Below the pieces are notes generated by a model, which saw nothing but the letters and a program-made list of their open reading frames with translations, made no database searches and had not been told where the DNA came from. This document shows positions 1,037 through 20,646 of a stretch of 64,000 nucleotides of DNA, in pieces. The DNA comes from Ferruginibacter sp. (GTDB lineage: Bacteria > Bacteroidota > Bacteroidia > Chitinophagales > Chitinophagaceae), in NCBI GenBank assembly GCA_031429575.1, contig JANOZW010000254.1:9640-73639 (forward strand). The letters run 5' to 3'. The first letter of the stretch is position 1; every line of letters begins with the position of its first letter. Position numbers and translations under genes: made by a program.

Positions 1037-2302
1037 TTAGTAGTGACACTTCTGACACTCCGTACCACCAATACTTTCTACTGTTACGCTATCCATTTTA
1101 TGATCCTTAATGTCTTTATGGAATTTTTCGTAAATGCTATAAAATTTATTACCTGTACTATCTGCTTTATTGTAAAAATCAACTTTGCTTTCTCTATGGC
1201 AATTGATACACCAGCCCATGCTTAAATCAGAAAACTGATACACTTCAGGCATTTCTTGAATATTGCCATGGCAGGTTTGACAATTTTGCTTACCCACTTT
1301 TACGTGTTGGCTATGGTTAAAATATACATGGTCAGGTAGGTTGTGTATTTTTACCCAAGGAATAGCGGTTGCACCATCAGGTATGCCATCTTTATTTTTA
1401 TCAGGATTGTATTCTTTTTTCTCAGGATTCCATCCTGCGTAAGCATATAATTTTTGAATTTCAGCCGTGCCATTTACAGATGAACCATCTGCCTTTGTAA
1501 TGGCTTCTCCTTTGTATTCTTTAATGGCCATGTGGCAATTCATACATACGTTTACCGATGGTATGCTGCCACTTTTACTATCTTGCGTACCACCATGGCA
1601 GTACAAACAACTTATTTGATTTGTACCTGCATGTACCTTATGAGAATAATAAATAGGCTGCTCGGGTTGGTAATCTTTCATACGACCTGCGCTCATAGCA
1701 CCTTCTACCATTAGATATCCACCTAGGCCAAAAAGCATCAGTACACCTATCATTAAGTATGATTTATTTCTATAGAAAGGAACAGGTTCACCACGAAGTA
1801 CACCCTCTTTATCATCAGATAATTTACGAAGGTTACTATTTACTTGTAATAAAATAAAAGCTACCACAGCTAAAATAAGAGTAAGTATTCCGAAAAGTAA
1901 AGAGTTATCTGAACCAGTTTCCTTACTCTCACCCTTTGGAACTGCCGGTGGGATATATGAATCTACATAATCTAAAATCGCATCAACTTCTGATTTCTTT
2001 AAAGTTGGAAAAGCCGTCATAATCGTAGGCTTCCATTTAGCAAATAATGCCTTCGCATAAGGATCAGAGGCAATCATTCCCGCAGGATTTGCCATCCACT
2101 TATAAACATATTCTTTGTCGGGCTGTCTATCTCTTACACCTTTTAACATAGGACCTGTGTAGTCTGCATCAACTTTATGACAACTGGCACATTGCGCTTT
2201 AAACAGCGCTTCGCCTTGTGCAAAAGCACTATTGTTAGAGATAAAACCAATAAGGATAAGGCTTGCAACGAACCTAGAAATGAATTTTTTGTAACGAATC
2301 AT
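1037..2302 (-). CDS. actA: Alternative complex III multiheme cytochrome c ActA (monoheme + pentaheme)
   Basis: Six CxxCH motifs (CASCH, CLYCH, CMNCH, CQTCH, CINCH, CQKCH), QPIYYSHKVHAG and HVYFNHSQH; upstream of actB. Confidence 0.92.
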   Translation of the reverse strand: MIRYKKFISRFVASLILIGFISNNSAFAQGEALFKAQCASCHKVDADYTGPMLKGVRDRQPDKEYVYKWMANPAGMIASDPYAKALFAKWKPTIMTAFPTLKKSEVDAILDYVDSYIPPAVPKGESKETGSDNSLLFGILTLILAVVAFILLQVNSNLRKLSDDKEGVLRGEPVPFYRNKSYLMIGVLMLFGLGGYLMVEGAMSAGRMKDYQPEQPIYYSHKVHAGTNQISCLYCHGGTQDSKSGSIPSVNVCMNCHMAIKEYKGEAITKADGSSVNGTAEIQKLYAYAGWNPEKKEYNPDKNKDGIPDGATAIPWVKIHNLPDHVYFNHSQHVKVGKQNCQTCHGNIQEMPEVYQFSDLSMGWCINCHRESKVDFYNKADSTGNKFYSIYEKFHKDIKDHKMDSVTVESIGGTECQKCHY

Positions 2303-2345
2303 ACAATTAAGCCGGGTTTTTGGTAGAAAATGGCTATTCCGTTTG

Positions 2346-2353
2346 CAAAAGTA
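2346..2353 (-). promoter_or_regulatory. Bacteroidota sigma-A -7 element (TAnnTTTG) upstream of actA
   Basis: Minus strand reads TACTTTTG about 44 nt before the actA ATG; no well-spaced -33 element found. Confidence 0.5.
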
Positions 2354-2651
2354 AGACAGGATGTTGACAAACTATCAACATTTTGAATCTTTTTTTAGGA
2401 GATTGTTAACTATTTTATGCAAACGTTGGAAAGTTTAGTAGTGTAGCAATTTTCTTCCATGTAAAAATATATTAACGTAAAAAACGAAGTAGAGATTGTA
2501 TAAACTTATGCACCTACTTTCAGATAAAAACCATTAACAGCTTTGCAAATATTTCAGATAGGGACGCATAAGATTATTAATGAAATGAAAATCTAAAAAA
2601 TTATTTTATGAATGGATATGTTTTCCCAATTTTTTGATTGATTTTTGCGCC

Positions 2652-2936
2652 ATGCTAAAAAAGCTGCAAGAAAAATGGAAGGTTGGTATAGGTAGGTTAA
2701 TATTAATTATTGCCACTTTTGCGATGGGGGGCAGTTTATGTGGATATTTGGGCAGAAAACTACTTGGTTTTACTGGCATGGAAAAAGGAGTGCTTTGGGT
2801 AGTAGCGTATGTTTTATTGGTAACCATACTTTGGCCACTGTGTGTAATTGTAATTAGCATTCCGCTTGGGCAGTTTGTTTTTTTTAGAAATTATTTGAAG
2901 AAAGTATTTGCACGAATTAGTGGGAGGAAGAAGTAA
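2652..2936 (+). CDS. Small two-TM membrane protein (DUF6787-like)
   Basis: MLKKLQEKWKV...IIATFAMGGSLCG...ILWPLCVIVISIPLGQFVFF pattern; ATG 2652 preferred over the track start. Confidence 0.65.
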   Translation: MLKKLQEKWKVGIGRLILIIATFAMGGSLCGYLGRKLLGFTGMEKGVLWVVAYVLLVTILWPLCVIVISIPLGQFVFFRNYLKKVFARISGRKK

Positions 2937-2966
2937 ATTGTTTAATGGTTGCATGGCTAAATTGTT
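2935..2966 (+). repeat. Degenerate 8-mer array x4 overlapping the stop codon
   Basis: AAATTGTT TAATGGTT GCATGGCT AAATTGTT. Confidence 0.5.
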
Positions 2967-3031
2967 GTGTAGCACATTTAGAAAACGTTGATAACATATT
3001 GTTCACTAGCTATACAAAATAAATACCTAAA

Positions 3032-3625
3032 ATGAACATAGCCATATTTGCAAGCGGGGGTGGGAGTAATGCGGAGGTGATTATAAAAACGTTGCCAGCA
3101 TTATTACTAGAAAAAAAAACTTCTGACAATATTGATTTAATTGTTACCAATAATGCAAAAGCGGCTGTACTGCACATTGCAGCTGAAAATAATATTGCCT
3201 CAGAAATTATAGATGTAAAAAATAAAACGGAAGAGGAATTATCTGTTTCCTATTTAGATATTCTTACCAAACATAACATCGGTTTTATAGTGCTGGCGGG
3301 TTATCTAAAAAAAATACCTATAGATGTTATAAAAGCATTTCCACAAAAAATAATAAATATACATCCTGCGTTATTACCCGCTTATGGTGGCGCAGGCATG
3401 TATGGTATGCGTGTGCACGAGGCTGTGATAAGTGCAGGCGAAAAACAAAGTGGTATTACCATTCATTTTGTAGATGAAGTGTATGACCATGGAGAAATAA
3501 TTTTTCAAGCAAGTTGTGATTTGAAAGAAGGGGAAACCAGAGAGAGTTTATCCGCAAAAATATTAGCACTGGAACATTTACATTTTAGTAATATAATTTC
3601 GGACGCTATTGTTTCACTACTCTAA
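3032..3625 (+). CDS. purN: Phosphoribosylglycinamide formyltransferase
   Basis: IAIFASGGGSN, LAGYLK, NIHPALLP, SGITIHFVDEVYDHG motifs. Confidence 0.95.
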   Translation: MNIAIFASGGGSNAEVIIKTLPALLLEKKTSDNIDLIVTNNAKAAVLHIAAENNIASEIIDVKNKTEEELSVSYLDILTKHNIGFIVLAGYLKKIPIDVIKAFPQKIINIHPALLPAYGGAGMYGMRVHEAVISAGEKQSGITIHFVDEVYDHGEIIFQASCDLKEGETRESLSAKILALEHLHFSNIISDAIVSLL

Positions 3626-3751: not shown

Positions 3752-4912
3752 TTATTCTTTTATAAATCTAAGTAAAACATTTGTTGATTTATCTTCTTTT
3801 TGCAATATGATGAAATAGTTACCAGCAGATAATTCATTATTGATTGGTAATTTAAAGGAGTAAACACTATCAAGGGTAATCTTTTTTTGGAGATAAAACT
3901 TTCCACTTACATCCAATAAGCTAACTAGGTAGTCACCTTTAAACAATACATCTTTAGATGCAATGGTAATATTTTTCTCTTTTGTTACAGGATTTGGATA
4001 ACAATACACATTCTGGTTTTGTTTGCTGCCACAAGTGCCATCAAATAATACGATTGGTGAATATTTAAAAGTGCCATCATTGTCAATGGATTTTAATCTC
4101 ACAAATAAAGTAGGTGATTTTATCTGGTCAAAAATTGCAATAGAAGTATCATACTTATTTTTATTTTCAGCTTTTAACGAACCTATCTTGGCAAAATTAG
4201 TACCGTCTTTGCTTAGTTCTACGTCATATTTTAAAACATTTGTTTCCTCACTTACAGACCAATTAACATCAATGTGGCAATCTTTATTATAAGCCCTAAA
4301 ATTACTAATGGTAACAGGTAAAACGCTAGCAATAATGGTGTATTGAACAAAAGCATTATTATTTCCAGAATTGTCGTCGGAAAGTACAAAACTAGGATTG
4401 TTGTTAGCAACAAAAAAATTGCCCGTTACAGTTGATGTTGCAAGTGTATTAGCTTTTACATCAAAAACAAATTGCCCATTAAAATCAATTGGTAATGCTG
4501 TGTTAATTATACATCTTATTTTGGGTTGGCTACCAGTGGTGATGTACGAAAAAGTAAAATAGTTACTTAATGCTGCGTTACTTAAATAATTATTTAAAGC
4601 CGTGGCATTAGCAGTAACAGCAGGGTTAAGAACAAATTTTGTTCCAAGGCCAATATCTATGAAAGCTGTATTAGCAGGGATGGCACTAGATAAACTTAAA
4701 TTAAAAACATCTAACTTAATTTTATATATACTATTAAGAGATATAGAATTTGCATCTACAGAAACATCCGCTACATTGGTAACATCAAACGACCCTAATG
4801 CTGGGTCTGCAAAAACGGGTGTTGTCTGCGCATAGCTCGATAAAGAAGCAATAATAGGAATCAAGAGTATTAAGGTATAACGAAAAGATAGTGATACGTA
4901 ATTTTTTTTCAT
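3752..4912 (-). CDS. T9SS type A sorting domain protein with an uncharacterised N-terminal Ig-like domain
   Basis: Signal peptide ending SYA-Q, LPVTISNF linker, C-terminal YPNP...AGNYFI CTD. Confidence 0.85.
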   Translation of the reverse strand: MKKNYVSLSFRYTLILLIPIIASLSSYAQTTPVFADPALGSFDVTNVADVSVDANSISLNSIYKIKLDVFNLSLSSAIPANTAFIDIGLGTKFVLNPAVTANATALNNYLSNAALSNYFTFSYITTGSQPKIRCIINTALPIDFNGQFVFDVKANTLATSTVTGNFFVANNNPSFVLSDDNSGNNNAFVQYTIIASVLPVTISNFRAYNKDCHIDVNWSVSEETNVLKYDVELSKDGTNFAKIGSLKAENKNKYDTSIAIFDQIKSPTLFVRLKSIDNDGTFKYSPIVLFDGTCGSKQNQNVYCYPNPVTKEKNITIASKDVLFKGDYLVSLLDVSGKFYLQKKITLDSVYSFKLPINNELSAGNYFIILQKEDKSTNVLLRFIKE

Positions 4913-5050
4913 GCCAATTTTTTTATTTTCAATTTTAGTTATTTCAACGGAATTGTATTTCTTATTTTCAGATTTTTATGTAAAATAAAATTGCCTAAAC
5001 CTACATAACAAATCATTTTGTATTCTTATTAATGTACATGTTATAAAAAC

Positions 5051-5084
5051 AAATTCAGAACCACCTTTAAGTGAATCTGAATTT
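5051..5084 (-). terminator. Possible intrinsic terminator downstream of the 5110 gene
   Basis: AAATTCAGA...TCTGAATTT stem with an A-rich left flank (U-rich on the minus strand). Confidence 0.4.
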
Positions 5085-5109
5085 GCATATTATGTTTAAG
5101 TTAGCTTAA

Positions 5110-6228
5110 TTATTGTTTCAAAAACTTAAGTACAATTGGTTTTTCGTCATCTTTTATTAAAGTAACAAAATACATTCCTGCCGGTAAAAACCCAGTTTTT
5201 ACTTTAAACTGTACTTGGTTTTTCAACGTTTCTTCTGTACGCTTCAATTCATTACCTGCTGCATTGGTTAATCTTATACTATACTTACCATTAAATATAC
5301 CAGCTTTTGCCTGCAGTGCTACTTCAGTTACCTCTGCTTTAACAGGATTTGGATATATAGAAACATCAAAACCAGTGTTACATATGTTATTGTTGTAAAT
5401 TTTTTCTGAATAAAGATATTGTCCATTTTCATTTTCTGCTTTTACTCTTACAGTAACGGCAGCGTTTACCATTTTGTCCAACAAATAGCCATATGATACT
5501 CCGCCAGATGCAAGTATTGTTTTTACAGGTACAAAAGTTAAACCATCCTCAGAAGTTTCAATTACAAATTGCTTTACCTCTTTAGCATTGTCGAGTACAG
5601 TCCAATTTACATCCAACATACAAGAGCGAGCTTTTGCAGAAAATTGAGTAAATTTTATCTCAAGAGGCTTTACATTATTGTAAGTTAAAGAAGTGGAATT
5701 GTTGTTTGGGTTGTTATCTGACAAAGTGTTATTAGGATTTTTTTCGTTGCTTACAAGCAGTTGACAAACCACCGTAGAGCTACCTGCTTTATTTGGAATT
5801 AGTATAAATGATGCTTTGCCAGAAAACTTAGCAGGCAAATCTTTATATAATATCCCAAATAAAATATATTGCTTTGAATCTGGAGCTTGTTTTAGCATCC
5901 ATTTAAAGTAACTGCTCAATGGAAGATTCTGCAAACTATTTAAATCCGTTCCTAATTTAAATTTACTTCCTAATGTAAGCATTATCCTACAACTACCAGA
6001 AGGCACTATTGCATCGTTATCATTATTCAATACGGTAAATTGAATTTTTACTGGGGATCCACTCACCAACATATCTGTATTTACAAATCCATCTGTAGGA
6101 TTACTAATCGTTAGGTTTTCTATAGCAGGATCACTAGCGCTAGATTTTACATGCCTGTTATAAGATTGGCCATAAGAAGAAACTGCCATAACAAATGTTA
6201 TAAGCAAAACGAAAGCTATTTTTTTCAT
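5110..6228 (-). CDS. T9SS type A sorting domain protein, paralog of 3752-4912
   Basis: MKKIAF signal peptide (ATG 6228), PLEIKFTQF linker, IYPNPV...AGMYFV CTD. Confidence 0.85.
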   Translation of the reverse strand: MKKIAFVLLITFVMAVSSYGQSYNRHVKSSASDPAIENLTISNPTDGFVNTDMLVSGSPVKIQFTVLNNDNDAIVPSGSCRIMLTLGSKFKLGTDLNSLQNLPLSSYFKWMLKQAPDSKQYILFGILYKDLPAKFSGKASFILIPNKAGSSTVVCQLLVSNEKNPNNTLSDNNPNNNSTSLTYNNVKPLEIKFTQFSAKARSCMLDVNWTVLDNAKEVKQFVIETSEDGLTFVPVKTILASGGVSYGYLLDKMVNAAVTVRVKAENENGQYLYSEKIYNNNICNTGFDVSIYPNPVKAEVTEVALQAKAGIFNGKYSIRLTNAAGNELKRTEETLKNQVQFKVKTGFLPAGMYFVTLIKDDEKPIVLKFLKQ

Positions 6229-6312
6229 AATCTTAATTTTATATTTTTTAACCTGCATTTTTTAAAAGTAGTCTGTTATGCATTTTTTAATGCATAACAG
6301 ACTTGTTGTATT

Positions 6313-9300
6313 TTATTCACCTGTGAAAATAATAGAGTTGCTATTATTGTTTAATCTTATTTCACCAGTTGCTGGTCTAAACTGTACGTTAAGGTTGAAC
6401 TTAGAGATATTAAGCGTATTTCTCTTCAAAGTAAATACAACCCTTAATTGCTCATTACAACCAATTGTGTTATTACCGTCTGTTCCTGTTCTAGAGAATT
6501 CCACATAAGATGAATTACTAAATGTTTGTACCCATTTACTATTATCTACTGTGTAAGTAATTTGAGAAGGGAAGCCATTTACATCTGTCCAAGTGAGCAA
6601 ACTTTGATTAAATATAACTTGATAACCTGCCGGCTTAAAGATACGTATCACAGAAGCAGTTGCTGCTTTGCCATTTATTTCCGTTAAGTTATACGCTATG
6701 GTTTTTTCATCACCATTTGCTGCATATAAATTATCAGCAGTCTGGGAACCGATGGCTACATCCGTATTTTGCGCTTCAGTAATTATCAATGCTGAATTTA
6801 AAATTCTGCTACAAGAAATACTGTTAGCATCACGAATTTGTACATTGTAAGTGCCTGCATTCACACTATAGCTACCACTGTTTTGCCAGCTTGTTCCACC
6901 GTTAATACTGTATTGGTATGAACCAGAACCGCCTGTTGGATTACTAATTGTAATAGTTGCACTATTGAAATTGCCCGCACAAGCTGCATTAGTAGGAGTT
7001 ACAGTAGCATTCAATATTGCTGCTTGAGTAATCGTCACTGATACACTTGATGTACAGCCATTAGCATCGGTTACGGTGTAACTGTATGCGCCTGCACTTA
7101 CCGTAAACGCTCCTGTTCCTGTATATGGTGCTGTTCCGCCTGTTGCTGATACGGTTACGGTGGTGGTTCCTCCAAAACAATTTATTGTTCCTGCTACTGC
7201 AGTGGCTACTAATTGGGTTGGTTGGCTTACCGTTCCTGTTACGGTTGACGTACATCCGTTTGCATCGGTTACGGTGTAACTATATGCTCCTGCACTTACT
7301 GTAAACGCTCCTGTTCCTGTATATGGTGATGTGCCGCCTGTTGCTGATACCGTTACTGTTGTTGTTCCACCAAAACATCCGATAGTTCCTGCTACTGCTG
7401 TTGCTACTAATTGGGTTGGTTGTGTTACTGTGTAATTCAATATTACAAATTGCCCAACGAAATCTTCTACTCTAATGCTGTATGCACCAGCAATTAAACT
7501 GCTGAAAGTTGAACTTGTCTGCCAAGTAACGCCATTATCTTTACTATATCTGTATGGTGTAGTACCACCAGAAGCCAATACGGTGATACTTCCATTATTG
7601 CCTCCATAACAACTTACATTAGTTGTAGTTTGCAAAATAGCCGTGAAATTGCTTAATATGGTATATTGAAGTTCTGAATGATTATTAGTTAAATCTATAT
7701 CTACTAAAGTTTCAGTAGCATTATTATGATTTGTAACAAGAATATCGCTACTTACTAGAGAAGTACCCGCTATTACTCCTTTAACATCAAAGTTAGCCAC
7801 AGCATTGTAATCTATTGGTAGAACTGCTATCTGATCTCCAATAAGTATTTGATGGCCTGCTACTGTAGAGAATGTCCAAGAAAATTCTATTGGAAGTACC
7901 GTCGCTAAAGCACTAGGATTGTTAAGAATTAGTTTATCACCTAGGTCAATTTTAACCTTAATAGTTCCACTTGGTACTGCATGCTCCAAACTAAAGTTTA
8001 AGATTGGAACATTAAGGGTATTAACTGCTAGGTAAGGTATTAAGTTTGCATTAATCAATGTGTTTGTTGCATCTGTAATATTTATAGCTACCAATGCTGG
8101 ATCTGATTCCACCACTGTTATTATTGTAAAACTTGCTGCAATGGTATGCGCCACTGTTACATTAGTAAATGTATAAGTATTAGCTGTACCTACTGATAAA
8201 CCATCTACCAAAACATTGGTTATTGCATATCCAGTATTAGGAGTAATATTGAAAGTTTGATTTGCTCCGAATGCAACAATTACAGATCCGCTTGGCGAAA
8301 TTGACCCGCCTGTTCCAGCCGATGCTGTGATAGTTTGACTACTTACAACAAAGCTTGCTGTAATGGTATGATTTGCAATTACAGATGTAAATGTGTAAGT
8401 AACAACTGCACCTACCGATACTCCATCTACTAAAACATCAGCTACATTGTATCCTGAATTTGGTGTAATGGTATAGGTTTGATTTCCTGTTCCAAGGCAA
8501 CTGAGCGTAGTTACACCAGATGGTGAAATACTTCCGTTTAAACCTGCAGAAGCAGTAATGCTATAATTAGCATTGATAACAAAATTTACTGCTGTGCGGC
8601 AAATTGATGCATTAGAACATGCTGCATAGAAAGTAGTAGTACCTGCTGTATTTGTATTAGCTAAGCCCGAACCAGCAACACCTACGGGATTAAAAGGAGA
8701 GCCAGTTCCAATAGCTGTACCACCAGATGCACTAGTGTACCATTCAATATTTCCCGCAGCTTGAAGCATTAATTGCCCTCCTACAGGAGGGGTTATTGCC
8801 CAAGAGTAAGCTGCAGTTGAATTGCCAGTAGTTGTTGAGTATGTTGTTGAATATAATGTATATGTTGTTCCTGCTGTTAAAGTCATCAATAACTGCGGAT
8901 CGTTTCCTGGACCAGTGTCATCATCTCCTTTAATCCATGTTCCACCGCCACTACAGTTGCCTGGCACAAATGCTCCTGTTGTAATATATGCCATACCATC
9001 ATCAGTTGATGTCATGTCAAATGCATAACTACCTGTAACACTTACCCTGAATTGTTGTGCTTGATAACCTCTTTGTACAGCGGCATCAAAAGAACATGTG
9101 GAAGTATTAATAATAGATGCTGTTGGACGCAATGCTTTTAGATCAGTAGCCGTGAAAGTTCCATTTAAAGTAGTTCCTGCATTTGCAAAACCTGCACAGC
9201 TTTTTGCAGCAACCGCAGCTATTGTTCCAATTTCATTTGCACAAATATTAGCGGCTGTACCAGTAATAATAGGATCTGTTTGAATCACTACTGCTACACT

Positions 9301-12300: not shown

Positions 12301-15249
12301 TACACTTGCTACAGTAGTTCCTGGAGGAAAAGCGCCCACACCCGCACTAACCGATATGTTCATACCTGCTAAAAGGTTTGTTGTACTTGTAACTGTTATG
12401 GTCGTACCTGTAGAGGTTGCACCTGCAGCGGATGTATATGCACTTCGAATTGTACTCGTAGTTGTTGCACCTGTAATATTTACAATGTTTGCTGCACTAG
12501 TAATTAAATTACCAGACTGAAGTGTTAATGTACCTATGCTTAATGCGCCACCTGCTACTGTTATGTTATTGAGATTACCAATTGTAGCTGCAGATATACT
12601 TCTGGTTGTTGGTATTTCAAACCCAGTTGTTCGAGCAGCAGTCTCATATTGATATAGGACACTGTATGTACCAGTTCCTAAGTTAAATGTAGGCGTAGCT
12701 GCAAATGAACCACCGGGAGTCGTTAAGCCAGTAGAACCAATTTGTACGGAAGTAGCTAAAGCGGCACCTGTACCAATTGTAATTAAATTTGATCCGCTAA
12801 TTGTGCCTATAAATAAGTTAACCCTTAAAACAGGCGTATTGTTTGTAGTTGATATCGTTAAACCACCACCATTTTGAAGTGAAATTACGCCAACATTGGT
12901 TAGCACAGTTCCAGTTCCAGTATAAGTTTGGGCAGTATTTGTAAAAGATAAAAATTGTAAAGTAGATGTAGTAGCGATACCCGTTAAAACACCATTATTG
13001 GTAAATGTAGTTCCACGCTGTGAGTAAGTACCTGCAAGTATATCTATTTTTCCAGCAGCACTAATAGTTGTGTTACCAGAAACGATTAAACTACCTGTTG
13101 AACTTGCACTTTGAAGACTACCTCCCGTAGCAAAAACATTTCCCGTAACGTTTAATGTTCCAGTAGTAAGTGCTCTGAAAAGCCCTGTACCTGTGGCAGT
13201 GATGGTTAAATCTCCCTTAATTACGCCAGTTGTGCTAGTTGTAAACCAACTCATCGTTCCTGAAGCTGCCGGGCAATTGTAAATAAAATTACCAAAAGAT
13301 TGTACTGCATTTGTTGCTGTAGTAGTAGAAGTAGTAATTCCACTGATTGTTACAGTAGAAGTAGTGTTCCAAGTTGCCAAAGGAATCCATGGAGCTGCAG
13401 TTGTTGCGCCAGAGACATTATATTGAGATCCGTTTGCAAAAACCAGTGTTGCTGCAGATCCTGTTACGTTTCCGTTTGTAGTAATATTTGCTGTTGCAAC
13501 ATTGTTTATAACACCCGTGCTTGCTACAGTAACAACTGTACCAGTACCGCCTGTTGTAAGAAAAGAATTTGATGTAGTTGCCGCAGTAGTAGTACCTGCA
13601 ACTGTAAGTGTTCCTGCTATAGTACCAGTCATACCAGTACCTGTAGCAAAAACCATAGAAATTGGGTTGACTGTATTTGTAAGCAATATAGAACTACCTG
13701 CTCCAATACTTAATTCATCTCCAACTGAACCAGTTAATGTTAATATCCTTTGTGTAGTTGCACTAGATTGTATTGTAGTGGCTGTGCTATTGGTGATTTG
13801 TAACGATCCAATTGATGCACTAGCACTAACACTAATTGTACCTGCTAAGCCTGCAGTTGTTCCCATACCATCAACAACCAATATATCAGAAGTTAGCGGA
13901 GTGGCCCTTGTGGTACCAGTATTATTAGCCAACGTATTCCAATTGGCTGCTGTATTCCAATCACCACCTGTTGCGCCTACCCAATAATATGTGGCTGCAG
14001 CGGTTGTAGCTTGCGTTCCGGCAATTCCATTGCTTACCGCTCCCTCACTAACCGAAACAACTCTCCAAGTATATGAAGTGCCAGGTGTAAGACCAGTAAC
14101 TGCCAAAGTATTTGTACCTACAAGTGTAGTGTTTAGATAGTTATACGTAGTACCTCCATCTGTAGAACTATAAACTGCATATTTTACAATGCCAGTTATT
14201 GGTGACGCCGCTGCCCAGTTAAGTGTCATTCCTCCAGCTGTAATAGCTGAAAATGTAAGTGGCGCTGTAGGAGCCGCTGTTGTAGGAGGAATAAAACGAT
14301 AGTATTTTCTGCTTCCGTTTGAAGTAGAATTTAAACTTGTAATAGTAGAAGAAGCTGTGTAGCTATTTGAAGTTACAGTAGCTGTTGTATTAGGGGCATT
14401 GGTACTCGTATTTAGTGTTACAACATTATTTACCGTTGTATTAGAAGATAACCCTACATAATAAAGTGCGGGTGTAGCAGCATTTGTTGCCATTGCACCA
14501 TACACATATTCAATAGCTCCAGTAGATTCGTATAAGCGTACCTGCCAAGTTGCAGTACCCGGAGCAACTGGGGTAATGAACCTAACCATGATATTTGTCC
14601 ATTGAATAACCAAAGTACGATTAGGTGCTGTGCCTACAATTTTTGCGATTACATTTCCATCCGATCCAGTTTGCATATCATTTGCAAAAGCCGCAATAGT
14701 GGGAACTGTAGTATTTGGTATAGCATATACAGTACTACCTGGTGCAACTCCCATTGTCATTATTCCGTTTGCAGTAACTCCAAAGTTTGCATACCTACTT
14801 CCCATTAAAAAGAATTCAAAAGTACTCCCAACTCCAAGATTGGTATTGGTTAAAGCAGAAACGCCATCATCAATACCAGCTCCAAGCAGTGAAGTAGTTC
14901 CAGTAGTCATGTCAATAGCATTGCTATTCATATCCAAAGCCAAAGAGCCATTGGTGCCAGTGGTAACAGTGGTAGGGCTTGGCAAATAATTAACTGTGCT
15001 CTGTGCATTTGCACCTATAGCACCTATAATTAATATGCTTCCTAATAGGAATGCATAAACAACTTGTTTTGCAAACACAAAAAAAGCAGGCTCACTAGCT
15101 TGCTTGGCACCCTGACTTGCAGAGGTAGATTGATTGTTTGCTGCTAAAACCAATGTATGGTTTGTAACATTGCTATTGCCCGTAAGCGTAGCTGTTGATT
15201 TTATCAAGCTTCGGAGAAAAGCAGTAATAAGGGTAAAGAAAATTTTCAT
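6313..15249 (-). CDS. Giant (2978 aa) secreted adhesin-like protein: FN3, beta-helix-like repeats, BNR/neuraminidase N-terminal-like domain, InlB B-repeat-like x2, SprB-like repeats; no recognisable T9SS CTD
   Basis: Continuous Thr/Ala/Gly/Ser-rich ORF; LTPGTSYTWRVVSV (FN3), TITASAGxxGSISPSG x2, CFGGTTTVTVSATGG...YTVTDANGC x2; no YPNP or PNxFTPNGDG at the C-terminus. Confidence 0.85.
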   Translation of the reverse strand: MKIFFTLITAFLRSLIKSTATLTGNSNVTNHTLVLAANNQSTSASQGAKQASEPAFFVFAKQVVYAFLLGSILIIGAIGANAQSTVNYLPSPTTVTTGTNGSLALDMNSNAIDMTTGTTSLLGAGIDDGVSALTNTNLGVGSTFEFFLMGSRYANFGVTANGIMTMGVAPGSTVYAIPNTTVPTIAAFANDMQTGSDGNVIAKIVGTAPNRTLVIQWTNIMVRFITPVAPGTATWQVRLYESTGAIEYVYGAMATNAATPALYYVGLSSNTTVNNVVTLNTSTNAPNTTATVTSNSYTASSTITSLNSTSNGSRKYYRFIPPTTAAPTAPLTFSAITAGGMTLNWAAASPITGIVKYAVYSSTDGGTTYNYLNTTLVGTNTLAVTGLTPGTSYTWRVVSVSEGAVSNGIAGTQATTAAATYYWVGATGGDWNTAANWNTLANNTGTTRATPLTSDILVVDGMGTTAGLAGTISVSASASIGSLQITNSTATTIQSSATTQRILTLTGSVGDELSIGAGSSILLTNTVNPISMVFATGTGMTGTIAGTLTVAGTTTAATTSNSFLTTGGTGTVVTVASTGVINNVATANITTNGNVTGSAATLVFANGSQYNVSGATTAAPWIPLATWNTTSTVTISGITTSTTTATNAVQSFGNFIYNCPAASGTMSWFTTSTTGVIKGDLTITATGTGLFRALTTGTLNVTGNVFATGGSLQSASSTGSLIVSGNTTISAAGKIDILAGTYSQRGTTFTNNGVLTGIATTSTLQFLSFTNTAQTYTGTGTVLTNVGVISLQNGGGLTISTTNNTPVLRVNLFIGTISGSNLITIGTGAALATSVQIGSTGLTTPGGSFAATPTFNLGTGTYSVLYQYETAARTTGFEIPTTRSISAATIGNLNNITVAGGALSIGTLTLQSGNLITSAANIVNITGATTTSTIRSAYTSAAGATSTGTTITVTSTTNLLAGMNISVSAGVGAFPPGTTVASVTNTTTFVASAAPITALSGGASVVSGIGGWVNGPLQLTLPPSLTGITTYSFPIGKSGFNPLDLVNITTGAAGPVIMAEVFDADAAGTAGVNMTSLNSNRYWATSLVSGDFTSTQLKLTEQTATALGTANAIASSASLAGAYDLAGGASPTVTATTITTQAPPLITTLANYYALGIKAVSMSYVSSTTTQAVTTAIVKPATNQQIIGVQIVTLGNASPLTLSSMDFNTTGSTSSAADIANARVYYTGTSNTFATTTQFGADVPTPSVPYTVTGSQMLAEGTNYFWLVYDVPASATVSNVLDAECIGFNIGTVQTPSVTAPAGTRIIKAALNGIYQIGASQVAPNYTKLTDAILDLNAYGVGSAVTFALQSDYSSTTETFPLTINAFTGASATNTLTIKPAAGVTSTISGALASAALIKLNGADYVTVDGSNNGTTTRDLTITNTATTASTGISFVSLGAGLGATNNTIKNCNISTGVATSIGYGIAVGGNTPGTSGADNDNVTLQNNAVTVAPIGIYANGTASVSTGGDDNLAIIGNSITYTGTLASLGMQLGNALNSSISQNTVSEETTTTQAPTGISLETGFVSSSVTRNNITKSLTTNTGGYGGRGITIGTGTATSNLTIANNFISGVSGSNFSGFTNSSSMGIAIGTIGNSTSLGTTTGGINVYYNSVNMYGSMGAGSTTALTTALYIGSGASVLDIRNNLLVNNQVATSTTQKNYAIYSAAANTAFANINYNDYFVSNTFNAASAVLGNIAATDRTTLATLTTGFGGNGNSINVAPVFTSNTDLHLVTTSNAGIDTKATAISTINDFDNDARDASTPDIGADEFTSPGCTTALAGTASGSSSFCGSGTPTITATGYSSGTGSTYQWISSTVLGDYPNAGNIISGQTNPATLTTGLVSATTYYWLRVTCATNTSTDNSSMVTITVNPLPVVTIASGVGTFCTSTIITASNGNDGTMYFQGTTSGGISTTTASSSQTVTSSGTYYFRAQSALGCWGPEGSVAVVIQTDPIITGTAANICANEIGTIAAVAAKSCAGFANAGTTLNGTFTATDLKALRPTASIINTSTCSFDAAVQRGYQAQQFRVSVTGSYAFDMTSTDDGMAYITTGAFVPGNCSGGGTWIKGDDDTGPGNDPQLLMTLTAGTTYTLYSTTYSTTTGNSTAAYSWAITPPVGGQLMLQAAGNIEWYTSASGGTAIGTGSPFNPVGVAGSGLANTNTAGTTTFYAACSNASICRTAVNFVINANYSITASAGLNGSISPSGVTTLSCLGTGNQTYTITPNSGYNVADVLVDGVSVGAVVTYTFTSVIANHTITASFVVSSQTITASAGTGGSISPSGSVIVAFGANQTFNITPNTGYAITNVLVDGLSVGTANTYTFTNVTVAHTIAASFTIITVVESDPALVAINITDATNTLINANLIPYLAVNTLNVPILNFSLEHAVPSGTIKVKIDLGDKLILNNPSALATVLPIEFSWTFSTVAGHQILIGDQIAVLPIDYNAVANFDVKGVIAGTSLVSSDILVTNHNNATETLVDIDLTNNHSELQYTILSNFTAILQTTTNVSCYGGNNGSITVLASGGTTPYRYSKDNGVTWQTSSTFSSLIAGAYSIRVEDFVGQFVILNYTVTQPTQLVATAVAGTIGCFGGTTTVTVSATGGTSPYTGTGAFTVSAGAYSYTVTDANGCTSTVTGTVSQPTQLVATAVAGTINCFGGTTTVTVSATGGTAPYTGTGAFTVSAGAYSYTVTDANGCTSSVSVTITQAAILNATVTPTNAACAGNFNSATITISNPTGGSGSYQYSINGGTSWQNSGSYSVNAGTYNVQIRDANSISCSRILNSALIITEAQNTDVAIGSQTADNLYAANGDEKTIAYNLTEINGKAATASVIRIFKPAGYQVIFNQSLLTWTDVNGFPSQITYTVDNSKWVQTFSNSSYVEFSRTGTDGNNTIGCNEQLRVVFTLKRNTLNISKFNLNVQFRPATGEIRLNNNSNSIIFTGE
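7052..7428 (-). repeat. Tandem 198-bp (66-aa) intragenic duplication of an SprB-like repeat
   Basis: Matching anchors gtacagcca (7052) and gtacatccg (7250); protein copies nearly identical. Confidence 0.9.
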
Positions 15250-16109
15250 ATTTGCTGTTTATAGGTGTTTTATATTCTGATTAGGATGTTTTATATTTTA
15301 ACTAAATTATTTTTTCACTTTAAAAAATTCCCACTAAGTATAGCTATGCATACTTACAAGATAATTTTGTACAACTCTTATTGAGTCCTTATTTAACAAT
15401 AAAATATTGTACAAATAAATTCAATATTAAAATGGTATTGTAGCTGTAGTGCTAAGCACAGCTTGGTTTACAGCGTTTATTAATTGGTTAAACAATTTTT
15501 CGTTTGGCTAAAATGCCAATAGGATAATGGATGGACGTTAGTTTGACAAACCAATAATAGACTTTAATTTGGGATTGACAAATTAGGTAAATGCTATTTT
15601 TATTCTTATCAATGTTTAAACACTTATGGGTAAAAAATATAATAAGATTGGCGAAAAAAAATTCACTAATTAATAAAATGTTAAATAAACAAATACCCAT
15701 AAGATTAAATAAACATGTTTGGATATATAGATTATTTTATGCATGCATTTCATAAAATGAGAATAAGATTGTGAATAAGATGTTAAAATGTTTTGGCGTT
15801 TTTTAATGCCCGAAACGTAAAAACACTATAGAAAATAGAGACATGATTTATTAAAAAATGGAGATTTACATAACCATGGGTAAGATTGGGTGATAAATAG
15901 AAATTAAACAAACCATCTTAATATACAAGCAAATGCTTTACTAGCTTTACTTTCCGCTGATTTTAGTTAGCTTGTACATTTCATCTTTCTCTTTTCATAT
16001 TATTTTATTACAGTATCGTATTTTTACGTTGTTCTCAAAATCCTGTTAAATAACTCTTTTAAGTTTTTTCTATATCGTTTTGTGCCGTAATATTACCACA
16101 CAAACAATC

Positions 16110-16865
16110 ATGCCCTTGCGTATAATTTTTACTTTGTTATTTATTTTCATTTATACGAATCATGCCTTTACACAAATAAGGGTTAGTGGTACTGTATTAG
16201 ATAAGAGTAAAATAAATTATGTAGAAGGCGTTCAAGTTATCAATACAGGTGGTAAAGTTGCTTTTACAGATTCGCTTGGGCATTATAGCATACCAGCAAA
16301 AAATGGTGACTCATTATATTTTGTATATAACAATAAGCCTACACAAAAATTTGCTGTGGGTAGTATTCCCAACCCTGAGCAATTTGATATTTCTATACAC
16401 TTAAACATAAAAGGAAAATTCAAAGTTTTAAAAGAAGTAATTGTTTACTCTAAAAATTACAAACAAGATTCGTTGGAAAACAGGCAGAATTATGCGGAAG
16501 TGTTTTCTTTTCAAAAGGAAGGGATTGGTACGTCTATTACACCAAGTGGTGGTGTAGGGCTAGATGCCAATGCGCTTATAAATATGTTTCGGTTTAAAAG
16601 AAATAAAAGGATAAAGGCTTTTCAACAAAGACTAGAAATTGAAGAACAAGAAAAATATGTAAGCTATCGTTTTAGTAAAAATTTTGTGGGTCGTACTACA
16701 CAGCTGAAGGGAGCTGCGTTAGATACTTTTTTAATTTGGTATCGCCCGTCGTATGAGTTTGTAAGTACCAGTAGTTTAATAGAGTTTAATCAGTTTGTGC
16801 TTAATGCATCTTATCACTACAAAAAGATTATGGGTATTGGGGAAGGGAAAAAGGAGGAAGAATAA
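16110..16865 (+). CDS. Secreted protein with CarboxypepD_reg-like N-terminal domain
   Basis: Signal peptide, then QIRVSGTVLD...TDSLGHYSI...GDSLYF...LKEVIV. Confidence 0.75.
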   Translation: MPLRIIFTLLFIFIYTNHAFTQIRVSGTVLDKSKINYVEGVQVINTGGKVAFTDSLGHYSIPAKNGDSLYFVYNNKPTQKFAVGSIPNPEQFDISIHLNIKGKFKVLKEVIVYSKNYKQDSLENRQNYAEVFSFQKEGIGTSITPSGGVGLDANALINMFRFKRNKRIKAFQQRLEIEEQEKYVSYRFSKNFVGRTTQLKGAALDTFLIWYRPSYEFVSTSSLIEFNQFVLNASYHYKKIMGIGEGKKEEE

Positions 16866-16907
16866 ATTGTTTGGTATTTGTGGTTTGTAGTTGTTTGTTT
16901 GGTGTTT
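16866..16907 (+). repeat. Degenerate 7-mer array x6 starting immediately after a stop codon
   Basis: ATTGTTT GGTATTT GTGGTTT GTAGTTG TTTGTTT GGTGTTT. Confidence 0.65.
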
Positions 16908-16933
16908 TGTGCTACTTGTCTATCTCTCTTAAT

Positions 16934-17101
16934 TTATAAATCTTTTGCGTAAATTTTTTTTGTGCCGCCTTTGCCGTCGGATACAACCATGTATGTATTT
17001 GTAGCTTTGGTTTCTACTTTTACTCTTTGTATAGCCCTAGCTAAAGCTTCCATTATTTTTGGTGAAAGGTCTTCACTTACTTTTTTATTAACGAGATTCA
17101 T
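16934..17101 (-). CDS. 55-aa protein coupled to the zeta-toxin-like ATPase (candidate partner/antitoxin)
   Basis: Manual translation MNLVNKKVSEDLSPKIMEALARAIQRVKVETKATNTYMVVSDGKGGTKKIYAKDL*; start overlaps the upstream gene end by 14 nt; below the ORF-track length cutoff. Confidence 0.7.
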   Translation of the reverse strand: MNLVNKKVSEDLSPKIMEALARAIQRVKVETKATNTYMVVSDGKGGTKKIYAKDL

Positions 17102-17657
17102 TTCCTATGATGTTGTTATATATTGTAAAGTTAAGTATTTCTTTTATTCCATCTATTGATTTACCTATGATTTGGTATTCCTGCCCAGAATTATCAAGCA
17201 AATACCAATTTTGAACCACAGATGCGTATTTAGGGAAATTTGCCAATCCCTTTTTATACCTTCTTTCAATTACATCTTGAGGGATATTATGCCCTCCTTT
17301 TTTTACCCTTATTGATACTCTCTCAAACGCCATTTCCGCACTTTCAAGGTTTACAAAAAACAGGGTAACGATAAAATCGTTCAACTTGGCTTTTTCTATA
17401 ATCTTTAAATATGTAAGCCCAGATAGGGTAGTTTCAAAAGCAAAACTTTGTTTGTTTTTAATGAGAGAATCAATTCTTTGAAGCATTGTTCTCGCAGCTG
17501 CAATAGCGGCTGATTCTACATCATCTCTATTTATTGCACGAGCAATTTCATCCGCATTTACAAATTCAATAGTTTGAAAAACCTCGGGCAATAGATTATA
17601 CGCTGCAGTAGTTTTTCCTGCACCATTACAACCAGCTATGATAAAGAGTTCTGGCAT
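17088..17657 (-). CDS. Zeta-toxin-like P-loop ATPase/kinase (COG4185-type)
   Basis: IIAGCNGAGKTT Walker A, FVNADEIA, SFAFETTLSG, RVKKGGHNIP. Confidence 0.85.
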   Translation of the reverse strand: MPELFIIAGCNGAGKTTAAYNLLPEVFQTIEFVNADEIARAINRDDVESAAIAAARTMLQRIDSLIKNKQSFAFETTLSGLTYLKIIEKAKLNDFIVTLFFVNLESAEMAFERVSIRVKKGGHNIPQDVIERRYKKGLANFPKYASVVQNWYLLDNSGQEYQIIGKSIDGIKEILNFTIYNNIIGNESR

Positions 17658-17743
17658 TATATATTGTTGAATTGATAAATTGTTTTATTGTTGATGGCTT
17701 TATTTAATTACAAGCAACTTTTAAAAATACTCACTAAGTTGTA

Positions 17744-19801
17744 TTAATAATTCACCAATCGCTCCACCATTTCTCCCAACCTTCCATAAGCCATAAAGTT
17801 TTTTTCAAGCTCTATACTAAATGGAATAGGGGTATCCAAACTTGCGCAACGCATAACAGGAGCATCTAATTTATCAAAACAATTTTCGCCAATCCATGCG
17901 GCTATTTCGCCGCCAATGCCACCAGTGAGGGAATCTTCGTGCAATATTAAAACCTTACCCGTTTTTTCTGTAACCATTTTTATGGCATCAAAATCTAATG
18001 GCAATAATGTTCTCAAATCTAATATCTCTATACTAATATCCTTATTTTTTTCTGCATACTCTATTGCCCAATGTACACCTGCACCATACGTAATTATGCT
18101 TATGTCATCGCCATGCTGTACATATCTTGCTTTACCAATTTCTATTTCATAATACTCATCTGGCACTTGCCCACTCACACTTCTATACAAAGCTTTATGC
18201 TCAAAAAACAATACAGGGTTAGGGTCATTAATAGCTGCTATCATTAATCCTTTTGCATCTTCGGGTGTGCTTGGATAAACCACTTTTAACCCCGGCGTAT
18301 GCACAAACCAAGCCTCATTGCTCTGGCTATGAAATGGCCCTGCGCCTACACCGCCGCCCGTTGGCATGCGTATAACTACATCGGCCCCTTGCCCCCAGCG
18401 GTAATGTATTTTAGCCAAATTATTTATTATTTGATTAAAGCCTACGGTTGCAAAATCTGCAAATTGCATTTCCATTACTGCTTTAAAACCTTCCAAACTT
18501 AACCCTAACGCACTGCCTACAATGGCGCTCTCACACAAGGGTGTATTGCGTACTCTATCTTTGCCAAACAATTCTACAAAACCTTCTGTTACTTTAAATG
18601 CGCCACCATACTCTGCAATATCTTGTCCCATTAAAATTAAATTCTCATGTTTTTGCATGGATTGTTTTAGGGCGTCGGAAATGCCGTTGATGAATTTTTT
18701 TTCTGTTTCGTTTCTCGTTTCTCGTATCTCGTTTGGTTCGTTTCTTGTTTCTCGTTTCTCGTTGAGTGATACTTTGGAGTTATCATAAACCGTTGTTGTC
18801 TGTTGTCTGAGGTCTGTCGTCTTTTTTGCATAAACATCTCCAATTTCCTCTGTCGTATTCGCTACAATTTTATTTGCCTTATACGCTTCGGCTAGTTCTG
18901 TTTCTATATACGTTTTGGTATCAGCTTTTATTTTTTCTATTGCTTCCGCAGTTAAATGTTCTTCATCAAGCAACCAAGCTTCATAATTTTTCACAGGATC
19001 TTTCTTTTCCCATTCGCTAAATAATTCTGGAGGTACATATTTTACACCGCTGGCTTCTTCGTGCCCACGCATGCGAAACGTCATACACTCTATTAAATAT
19101 GGTTTTTGATTTTTTATACAATATTCTCGAATGCCTTTTATGGTGTCATACACTTCCAGTAAATTATTACCATCAATGCGAACACCTTCCATGCCGTAAC
19201 CTTTTGCTTTGTCCACCAAACTTTCGCAGCGGTATTGTTCATTTACTGGTGTACTCAATCCATATCCGTTATTTTCTATTACAAATATTACTGGCAAATC
19301 CCACACGGCTGCTGTGTTTAATGCTTCATGAAAATCACCTTCGCTTGTACCACCATCTCCAGTAAAAGCAAGTGATACTTTTTGTTGTTTTTTTAATTTA
19401 TATGCAAGCGCTACACCATCAGCAATGGCTAATTGTGGGCCAAGATGAGAAATCATTCCGCAAATGTGATGTTCTTTACTACCAAAATGAAAACTACGCT
19501 CACGCCCTTTGCTATAACCTTCTTTATTGCCTTGCCATTGCATAAATAATTTACTTAGTGGCATATTACGACCTGTAAACACACCTAGGTTTCTATGTAA
19601 CGGCATTATCCATTCATTTTGTTGCATGGCGGCTGTAACACCTACCGATATTGCCTCCTGCCCAATACCGCTAAACCATTTAGATATTTTTCCTTGGCGT
19701 AACAACACGAGCATTTTTTCCTCTATCATGCGGGGCAGCAAAATAGATTTATACAATGCTATAAGTTTTTCTGGCGATAATCCTTTTTGTAAAAAATTCA
19801 T
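17744..19801 (-). CDS. 2-oxoacid (2-oxoisovalerate-type) dehydrogenase E1, fused alpha/beta
   Basis: TPP motif GDGGTSEGDFHEALN, FRMRGHEE, GQDIAEYGG, FHSQ; ATG 19801 preferred because the track extension to 19909 translates a repeat array. Confidence 0.9.
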   Translation of the reverse strand: MNFLQKGLSPEKLIALYKSILLPRMIEEKMLVLLRQGKISKWFSGIGQEAISVGVTAAMQQNEWIMPLHRNLGVFTGRNMPLSKLFMQWQGNKEGYSKGRERSFHFGSKEHHICGMISHLGPQLAIADGVALAYKLKKQQKVSLAFTGDGGTSEGDFHEALNTAAVWDLPVIFVIENNGYGLSTPVNEQYRCESLVDKAKGYGMEGVRIDGNNLLEVYDTIKGIREYCIKNQKPYLIECMTFRMRGHEEASGVKYVPPELFSEWEKKDPVKNYEAWLLDEEHLTAEAIEKIKADTKTYIETELAEAYKANKIVANTTEEIGDVYAKKTTDLRQQTTTVYDNSKVSLNEKRETRNEPNEIRETRNETEKKFINGISDALKQSMQKHENLILMGQDIAEYGGAFKVTEGFVELFGKDRVRNTPLCESAIVGSALGLSLEGFKAVMEMQFADFATVGFNQIINNLAKIHYRWGQGADVVIRMPTGGGVGAGPFHSQSNEAWFVHTPGLKVVYPSTPEDAKGLMIAAINDPNPVLFFEHKALYRSVSGQVPDEYYEIEIGKARYVQHGDDISIITYGAGVHWAIEYAEKNKDISIEILDLRTLLPLDFDAIKMVTEKTGKVLILHEDSLTGGIGGEIAAWIGENCFDKLDAPVMRCASLDTPIPFSIELEKNFMAYGRLGEMVERLVNY
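18704..18821. repeat. Two 7-mer arrays (TTTCTCG-like; TGTTGTC-like) in-frame in the E1 alpha/beta linker
   Basis: TTTCTCG TTTCTCG TATCTCG tttggttcg TTTCTTG TTTCTCG TTTCTCG (18711-18761); TGTTGTC TGTTGTC TGAGGTC TGTCGTC (18794-18821). Confidence 0.85.
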
Positions 19802-19853: not shown

Positions 19854-19980
19854 TAACAAAATTCGTACCCATCCTTTAAGAAATTATTTATTACTTTTAA
19901 ATAAATCATTGGTTATAAAAAACATTCTATTTTCCAATTAAACTAATTGTTTAATTTGTTTGAACTATAAAATAATCTAC

Positions 19981-20646
19981 ATGCAAACAGACAACAATAA
20001 TGCATTTGTAATTTCATATTTAAACCTACGCTTAGGTTTAGGGTTTGTAGGTTTTTTTCTTCCGATAATTTTAATGGCGGGCACATGGGGGTTGGCAGAT
20101 TGTACCCAGTTACAACCTTCGTTAAGCCATTATTATTATACCATTATGGGAGATTATTTTGTAGGCTCTTTGTGTGCCGTAGCCATGTTTTTATTTTTTT
20201 ATAAAGGGGTAGATAAGCAAGACGGCATCATTGCAAACTTTGCTGCAGTATTTGCTTTATTGGTTGCATTTTTCCCTACCAACCCCAGTGTAGATTCTAT
20301 TTGCCAATACATTTCTACCAATAAAGTTGCGTCTGTAAATGCTGTACATTATTCAGCCGCAGCCTTACTATTTGCAAGCTTTGCTTATTTTTCTATTTTT
20401 TTATTTACCAAAACTGATCCTACAAAAGAAATGACAGCGCATAAAAAAATGAGGAATCGTATTTATGTAACTTGTGGTATTATCATTATTATTTGTGTGA
20501 CTCTTATTGCCATATATAATTTTGTTGGCAAACTAGAAACAACTTTTGCTAAATATAAACCAACCTTGGTATTAGAAAGTATTGCACTCTTTGCATTTGG
20601 CACATCGTGGATTACAAAGGGAGAAATGATTTTGAAGGATGTATAA
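19981..20646 (+). CDS. Multi-pass membrane protein (DUF998-like)
   Basis: ISYLNLRLGLGFVGFFLP, SLSHYYYT, VHYSAAALLF, ESIALFAFGTSWITKGE. Confidence 0.65.
   Translation: MQTDNNNAFVISYLNLRLGLGFVGFFLPIILMAGTWGLADCTQLQPSLSHYYYTIMGDYFVGSLCAVAMFLFFYKGVDKQDGIIANFAAVFALLVAFFPTNPSVDSICQYISTNKVASVNAVHYSAAALLFASFAYFSIFLFTKTDPTKEMTAHKKMRNRIYVTCGIIIIICVTLIAIYNFVGKLETTFAKYKPTLVLESIALFAFGTSWITKGEMILKDV

Follow-up and report, generated by a model that had tools for sequence, protein, structure and literature searches.

How does a giant surface protein without a recognisable sorting signal come to be displayed on a bacterial cell, and why do the two genes next to it encode one of its domains? The question is raised by a 64,000-nucleotide (nt) stretch of a Ferruginibacter sp. 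genome (assembly GCA_031429575.1, contig JANOZW010000254.1, positions 9,640 to 73,639 of the forward strand), referred to below as the window. Three co-oriented genes on its minus strand are concerned, namely, P0003 (6313..15249), which encodes an adhesin-like giant of 2978 amino acids (aa), and two genes for small proteins, P0002 (small protein 1, 5110..6258, 382 aa) and P0001 (small protein 2, 3752..4912, 386 aa). Both small proteins consist of a signal peptide, a domain of ~150 aa that we name A4, a spacer domain and the type A C-terminal sorting domain (CTD) of a type IX secretion system (T9SS). The giant also contains A4, but no T9SS CTD was detected in it, whereas, to our knowledge, current models require each T9SS substrate to have a CTD of its own.

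A4 is an unannotated beta-sandwich restricted to Ferruginibacter and a few relatives

P0001 and P0002 align as homologues from end to end (BLASTP 9e-38, 29% identity), and each of them matches one internal stretch of the giant (6e-14 and 32% identity for P0001, 4e-10 and 28% identity for P0002). According to tblastn, the window holds exactly three copies of A4, all on the minus strand: 7657..8112 in the giant (aa 2380-2531), 5677..6138 in P0002 (aa 41-194) and 4334..4816 in P0001 (aa 33-193). A preliminary description of this DNA, made by eye, had claimed one unnamed domain of this size in the three co-oriented genes. The significant BLASTP matches and the lack of a Pfam or NCBIfam model confirm that claim, its domain coordinates lie within a few bases of the tblastn boundaries, and the motif it had proposed corresponds to the columns conserved across 58 A4 copies (D4, P5, N39, P47, L57-G58, F77, P99, S118, N128, L136, D138, N143-N144 and Y150). 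Other columns are type-specific, among them domain positions 51, 87, 89, 94, 98, 116 and 124.

No Pfam or NCBIfam model matched A4, whether the whole proteins, the isolated segments (E <= 10) or all 18 members of the domain alignment (E <= 1) were scanned, and a profile search against PDB sequences returned nothing significant. The AlphaFold2 (AF2) model computed from the domain alignment is an all-beta, complete 10-strand sandwich (predicted local distance difference test, pLDDT, 94; predicted template-modelling score, pTM, 0.88), in which the first strand is ordered (pLDDT 96 over residues 1-10). Foldseek against the PDB finds weak, generic beta-sandwich neighbours (E >= 4e-5, template-modelling score, TM, 0.45-0.6), including integrin alpha leg domains, Gram-positive pilin and AgI/II C-domains, the alpha-2-macroglobulin receptor-binding domain, CARDB 3idu, cohesin-like modules and TTHA1873; the matches to CnaA-like pilin and AgI/II domains (E ~5e-5, TM ~0.5) are likewise weak, generic sandwich matches. 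The earlier idea of a paralogous Ig/DUF11-like module is thus borne out at the level of fold only. A4 is Ig/DUF11-like by fold and not by sequence membership, and it does not turn out to be simply an annotated DUF11 or CARDB domain, as there is no sequence match to either.

A profile search of 1.84 billion representative proteins yielded 156 clusters at E <= 1e-3, which comprise either proteins of ~360-390 aa with A4 straight after the signal peptide or long proteins. A4 is present in 25 of 151 sampled genomes of the window's own genus (about 17%), in 2 of 201 genomes of the family sample and in a single one of 401 genomes of the phylum sample, namely, the window's own. All named public relatives are members of Ferruginibacter, family Chitinophagaceae. 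Six A4 copies occur in the window's genome, of which the window holds three and another contig, C81, the other three. A4 is a lineage-restricted, unannotated beta-sandwich whose fold appears to be CnaA/DUF11/CARDB-like, limited to Ferruginibacter and a few relatives.

In a maximum-likelihood tree, the 58 copies of A4 sort by position into clades of their own: large proteins of the giant type, large proteins of the 1-kb type, small partners, small orphans, and the P0002 and P0001 types, which are the first and second small genes of three-gene loci, respectively. Because the copies group in this way, the paralogy is old and each position has been kept under selection. Recent gene conversion between neighbours is ruled out by the same old clades.

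Large and small A4 proteins have mutually exclusive architectures

A4 proteins fall into two types that do not overlap in architecture. The large type (565-5332 aa) has variable N-terminal regions and an internal A4, and terminates in the fixed series A4, SprB repeats and A5, with no CTD; A5 is our name for the second conserved domain of ~150 aa, which closes these proteins. The small type (~360-390 aa) has the order signal peptide, A4, spacer and type A CTD, and the PNP motif of the CTD is present in 104 of 110 full-length small proteins. A5 ends 20 of the 24 long representatives; one of the other four (P0214) has a type A-like PNP motif, and the tails of the remaining three, being unlike natural ends, were taken as truncated. 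Furthermore, all 114 additional A5 proteins that were retrieved independently also carry A4 and have A5 at the last residue, with 156-179 aa (two SprB repeats) between the two domains, and none of the 114 has a CTD or PNP motif. A search of the 151 genomes of the genus located no A5 except in open reading frames (ORFs) that also contain A4.

In the window, the giant is composed of an N-terminal extension, a Sec signal peptide, fn3, BNR_assoc_N and Ig_7 domains, and then A4, SprB-type repeats (6778..7656, minus strand) and A5 (6316..6777, minus strand), which stops at the last residue of the protein (...NNNSNSIIFTGE). The SprB family PF13573 matches the last 662 aa of P0003 at E 3e-18 over 3 stretches and also matches orthologous giants, at 1e-47 to 1e-49. 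The annotated ATG of the giant places an extension of ~60 aa (15070-15249, minus strand) ahead of the hydrophobic signal sequence; an in-frame GTG (VFAKQVVYAFLL...ANAQ/S) would yield a canonical signal peptide, so that the real start is uncertain.

The large proteins have Sec signal peptides but lack any recognisable T9SS signal. P0003 gave no match to the type A CTD models (TIGR04183, PF18962) at E <= 0.1 and no NCBIfam or Pfam match to the type B CTD (TIGR04131, CHU_C). A5 belongs to no Pfam family and matches no type A or type B CTD model; with 20 A5 tails, the CTD models found nothing at E <= 1. The AF2 model of A5 is an 11-strand sandwich (pLDDT 84). Its structural neighbours are those of A4, including integrin calf, CARDB and cohesin folds, with the addition of the DUF11/CLIPPER structure 9ifr, to which its match (E 4.5e-5, TM 0.53/0.64) is again a weak, generic sandwich match; although they have these neighbours in common, A4 and A5 show no homology detectable by hhalign. 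The top 50 neighbours of A5 include no CTD structure. The known CTD is a compact 3+4 sandwich (PMC11285876), and A5, with 11 strands and ~150 aa, is about twice its size.

By contrast with the giant, the small proteins are readily assigned to the T9SS, and the SprA translocon is encoded in the window's genome. The CTD of P0002 exceeds the cut-offs of both type A models (TIGR04183, 28.4 bits, cut-off 23, E 1.2e-6; PF18962, 30.3 bits, cut-off 27), and that of P0001 scores 26.2 bits with TIGR04183 (cut-off 23, E 5.8e-6) and 24.5 bits with PF18962 (cut-off 27). The signal peptides of both proteins end in AQ or GQ. Between A4 and the CTD lies a spacer, a beta domain of ~100 aa with weak F5/8-C and SusE-like matches, which recurs in unrelated T9SS cargo. 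The preliminary description had taken A4 for the whole passenger of the small proteins. The domain is there, but since a spacer common to unrelated T9SS cargo precedes the CTD, A4 is not the whole passenger; it is instead the only specific passenger domain.

The giants resemble each other at the C-terminus alone. The window's giant and its counterpart in a related Ferruginibacter metagenome-assembled genome (locus L002) have only the last ~665 aa in common (62.6% identity), which comprise A4, the SprB repeats and A5, and the preceding 2300 or more residues show no similarity. More distant giants display the same pattern of a constant foot under unrelated heads. A constant C-terminal module with exchangeable heads is what one would expect of a delivery or anchoring device, not of a ligand-binding tip.

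The large gene is followed by a small gene at 21 of 22 junctions

The gene pair was followed over 22 junctions, which come from the window, from public loci and, in genomes of the genus, from 20 stretches. At 21 of the 22, the gene directly downstream of a large gene for A4 and A5 is a co-oriented small gene for A4 and a CTD, whose ATG lies 55-129 nt past the stop codon of the large gene. Only the second large gene of locus L029 (565 aa) departs from this, as the small gene beside it is convergent. Different loci have different flanking genes, and the A4 copies of the lineages that keep the pairing are only 27-65% identical. Loci of the giant type have two small genes each, and those of the ~1-kb type have a single one, in many cases with an orphan small gene at a distance of a few kb. 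Ferruginibacter sp. HRS2-29, which is a cultured strain, has the pair as well (locus L040), with a large protein of 1362 aa and a partner of 377 aa.

The possibility that large and small genes are a single gene, split by read-through or sequencing error, was considered and rejected: every small gene has its own ATG and a canonical signal peptide, and the reading frames differ in 7 of 20 loci. A fusion protein is excluded because the signal peptides are separate. The small ORF lies in the frame of the large one in 13 of 20 loci, where one third would be expected; this coincidence is probably not meaningful, as the loci are related and have a common spacing.

The window's own genome contains a second, shorter cassette on contig C81 (locus L019, 14000-33999). 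It is made of a CTD-less protein of 1012 aa (13904-16942), with a signal peptide, a DUF11-like N-terminal domain, SprB repeats, A4, further SprB repeats and A5, and then of a 371-aa protein with A4 and a CTD (17009-18124); an orphan 364-aa protein with A4 and a CTD (2222-3316) is found ~10 kb upstream. The DUF11-like domain (ANPTIGVIGLG...) is different from A4 and occurs in three proteins of C81 (L019 3859-4938, minus strand; 5025-7646, minus strand; 13904-16942, plus strand), that is, in the CTD-less 1012-aa protein and in two type A CTD proteins (359 and 873 aa), the copies being highly similar by eye.

Directly upstream of the large gene of the ~1-kb type are a TonB-dependent receptor gene and a gene for a secreted protein (L019 8459-13853; L040 1491-5966). 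In L040 the secreted protein belongs to Beta_helix_4, and in L019 it has 605 aa and no Pfam match. Because these genes precede the pair both in the window's genome and in HRS2-29, the locus of the ~1-kb type may be larger than the pair itself.

The small proteins may anchor or carry the large ones

We propose that the T9SS delivers the small proteins to the surface and that they serve the CTD-less adhesin, which docks onto them, as anchors or carriers, a reading to which we assign a probability of about 45%. The T9SS would export the small protein, and PorU would cleave its CTD and attach the protein to the cell surface. Removal of the CTD by PorU and linkage to the surface are established for type A cargo in other Bacteroidota. 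The A4 of the small protein would bind the foot of the large protein non-covalently, at A4 or at A5, and this docking would hold the adhesin on the cell; if the complex formed already in the periplasm, the T9SS signal would be supplied in trans as well. We infer each of these steps of binding, export and anchoring. The preliminary description had suggested that the shared domain might mediate hetero-assembly of a surface filament or anchor, and a role in hetero-assembly or anchoring is circumstantially supported by the adjacency at 21 of 22 junctions, by the lack of a CTD in the large proteins and by the fact that the giants are alike only in the A4-SprB-A5 module. Furthermore, because small genes also stand alone while large genes have a small partner, the dependency between the genes is one-way. 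The more far-reaching version, that the T9SS both exports and mounts adhesins without their own sorting domain, with a small type A CTD protein that uses its own A4 to bind the A4-SprB-A5 foot, be it in the periplasm or at the translocon, and that carries the adhesin out and tethers it (a 'CTD in trans'), seems to us unlikely.

Several observations weigh against docking. In a mirror-tree comparison, the A4 of the large proteins correlates with that of the adjacent partner at r 0.59 and with that of a nearby orphan copy at r 0.49, which is no excess co-variation; A5, which is in the same chain as the large-protein A4, gave 0.87. The small genes are also found alone or as small-only pairs and, because they occur without a large partner, their products must have some function of their own. 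Moreover, in locus L039 (3774-6868), from a genome of another genus of the family (G147), the gene upstream of a small gene for an A4 and CTD protein encodes a 649-aa protein with a degenerate A5-like tail and no A4, so that pairing of A4 with A4 cannot be a universal contact; this single locus hints at a contact between A5 and A4. Neighbouring surface proteins of the window's genome commonly have domains in common, and the literature searched offers no T9SS precedent for hitchhiking export of a protein of several thousand residues. The 649-aa protein of L039 has two N-terminal repeats that resemble, by eye, the N-terminal region of the window's giant.

The structure of the junctions is a further point against docking. 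Each of the 18 large-to-small junctions folded (the window, L001, L002, L019, L022-L028, L030-L034, L036 and L039) has a perfect hairpin of 10-17 bp, 8-20 nt past the stop codon of the large gene. The hairpins differ in sequence from locus to locus, many are followed by a U-rich run, and the ATG of the small gene comes 35-45 nt further on. In the window, a perfect 15-bp hairpin (6270..6303, minus strand; free energy -21.4 kcal/mol, z -7.6) lies between the stop codon of the giant and the start codon of P0002, and a terminator-like hairpin with a U-tract follows P0002 (5049..5086, minus strand), where the 126-nt stretch folds at z -3.6; nothing comparable to the latter was found downstream of P0001 in the window. 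The large and small genes may therefore be neither co-transcribed one-to-one nor simply co-translated. Through termination, attenuation or stabilisation of a 3' end, the junction hairpin could give the two products an unequal dosage.

The same observations can be accommodated if the neighbours never touch each other. They would then be independent, paralogous surface proteins, with A4 as a structural or ligand-binding sandwich spread by tandem duplication and shuffling and the small proteins as stand-alone binders, a possibility that we take seriously, although we find it less convincing than docking. It would account for the orphan small genes and small-only tandem pairs, for the adjacent partner showing no excess co-variation and for the terminator-like hairpin between the genes, and it has a parallel in the second, unrelated DUF11-like domain that neighbours on C81 likewise have in common. 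It does not readily explain why a co-oriented small gene has stayed directly downstream of 21 of 22 large genes when the A4 copies have diverged to 27-65% identity, nor why, under heads that swap, the A4 of the large proteins is invariably part of a fixed C-terminal module with A5, and it offers no route by which the large proteins would reach the surface. Alternatively, A5 itself may be a non-canonical secretion or anchoring signal, either a third class of T9SS CTD or a signal for another pathway, with the small A4 proteins acting only after export, for example as receptors, spacers or regulators. A CTD outside types A and B has an accepted precedent in ChiA of F. johnsoniae. Consistent with a signal, A5 always runs to the last residue, the usual site of T9SS signals, and has a conserved final strand (NN-x-NS-I-[IV]-...), and L039 retains an A5-like tail in the absence of A4. 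However, the size of A5, roughly double that of known CTDs, the absence of CTD structures from its top 50 neighbours and the failure of every CTD model to match it even at E <= 1 make this quite improbable, and it would leave unexplained why the partner must carry A4.

Finally, the large and small proteins could be subunits of a pilus-like filament, held together by donor-strand exchange or by covalent links. The fold neighbours include Gram-positive pilin and isopeptide (CnaA-like) domains, and by analogy with fimbrial operons the intercistronic hairpin could provide unequal subunit dosage. The donor-strand-like mechanism put forward in the preliminary description is nevertheless not supported by the AF2 monomer of A4, which is complete and confident, with an ordered first strand and no strand apparently missing; the predicted monomer is not an incomplete Ig fold of the kind found in donor-strand-exchange pilins (chaperone-usher pilins and the Bacteroidota type V FimA/Mfa). 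Covalent linkage fares no better. No lysine is invariant in A4 (best column 83% of 58 sequences) or in A5 (best column 75% of 20 sequences) and, since none is, the CLIPPER/CnaA isopeptide triad is absent from A4, as it is from A5. With neither a pilin motif nor a sortase signal present, we consider a filament highly implausible. Docking of the large protein onto its small neighbour is the reading that we favour.

Relation to known systems

The closest system is SprB of Flavobacterium johnsoniae, a type B CTD cargo with a cognate PorP/SprF-like shuttle (PMC12618676, PMC9143113). In both cases a very large surface adhesin with SprB repeats is encoded beside a dedicated small partner in the T9SS setting of Bacteroidota. 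However, the large protein described here lacks a CTD of either type, B or A, and its partner is a soluble type A CTD cargo instead of a PorP-like outer-membrane barrel and has a domain in common with the adhesin.

DUF11/CLIPPER (PF01345; PDB 9IFR) and CARDB (PF07705; PDB 3IDU) domains are similar to A4 and A5 in size and fold class. Both A4 and A5 match CARDB 3idu at about 2-5e-4, at the level of fold, and both end in a D-x4-NN or E-x4-NN motif, which we take to be typical of DUF11 and CARDB. By contrast, A4 and A5 have no sequence match to either family model at E <= 1-10 and no conserved isopeptide lysine, and, unlike DUF11/CARDB stalks, they occur once per protein, at a fixed position and without tandem repetition. 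DUF11/CLIPPER domains are defined by a Lys-Asn isopeptide bond with a catalytic Asp/Glu, the conserved Lys being in the first strand, although some DUF11 domains have no isopeptide bond (bioRxiv 10.1101/2025.04.25.650565).

In mechanism, the closest analogies to the docking that we propose would be mounting of the cohesin-dockerin type and hitchhiker export. As in the cellulosome, a small surface-anchored protein would hold a large secreted one through a beta-sandwich of ~150 aa. Cohesin modules are among the weak fold neighbours of A4 and A5, at a TM of only ~0.5; neither domain matches cohesin PF00963 in Pfam, and Pfam finds no dockerin or EF-hand in P0003. Unlike in the cellulosome, both partners bear the same sandwich, and the host is a Gram-negative bacterium with a T9SS. 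Piggyback export of subunits without a signal is known from Tat PaoABC (PMC4273604); there, as would be the case here, an untargeted protein leaves together with a signal-bearing partner, but across another membrane and by other machinery. Neither type of mechanism is reported for the T9SS in the literature searched, and the same searches found no published description of the A4 system or of CTD-less or piggyback T9SS cargo.

Genes around the trio

The neighbours of the giant encode a formyltransferase, a cytochrome c, a zeta-toxin-like kinase and an E1 dehydrogenase. None of them matches PorP/SprF, and a 261-aa ORF at 16080-16865 matches nothing. This ORF (plus strand) and another flanking ORF at 19960-20646 (plus strand, 228 aa) have no Pfam match.

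Implications

Beyond the preliminary description, the analysis defines two unannotated domains and a conserved two-component architecture, for which surface anchoring is a well-motivated hypothesis. The SprB-repeat adhesins concerned are a family of large proteins, the largest of more than 5000 residues, without a recognisable sorting domain, and each stands on a two-domain foot, one domain of which recurs in a CTD-tagged neighbour at 21 of 22 junctions. Even on the ordinary reading of independent surface proteins, A4 and A5 make up two well-defined domain families that fold confidently and are absent from Pfam. If, on the other hand, the neighbour anchors or carries the adhesin, more proteins could be assigned to the T9SS secretome, the free swapping of heads would be explained, and A4 with its counterpart in the foot would provide a compact docking pair of ~150 aa for surface display in Bacteroidota.

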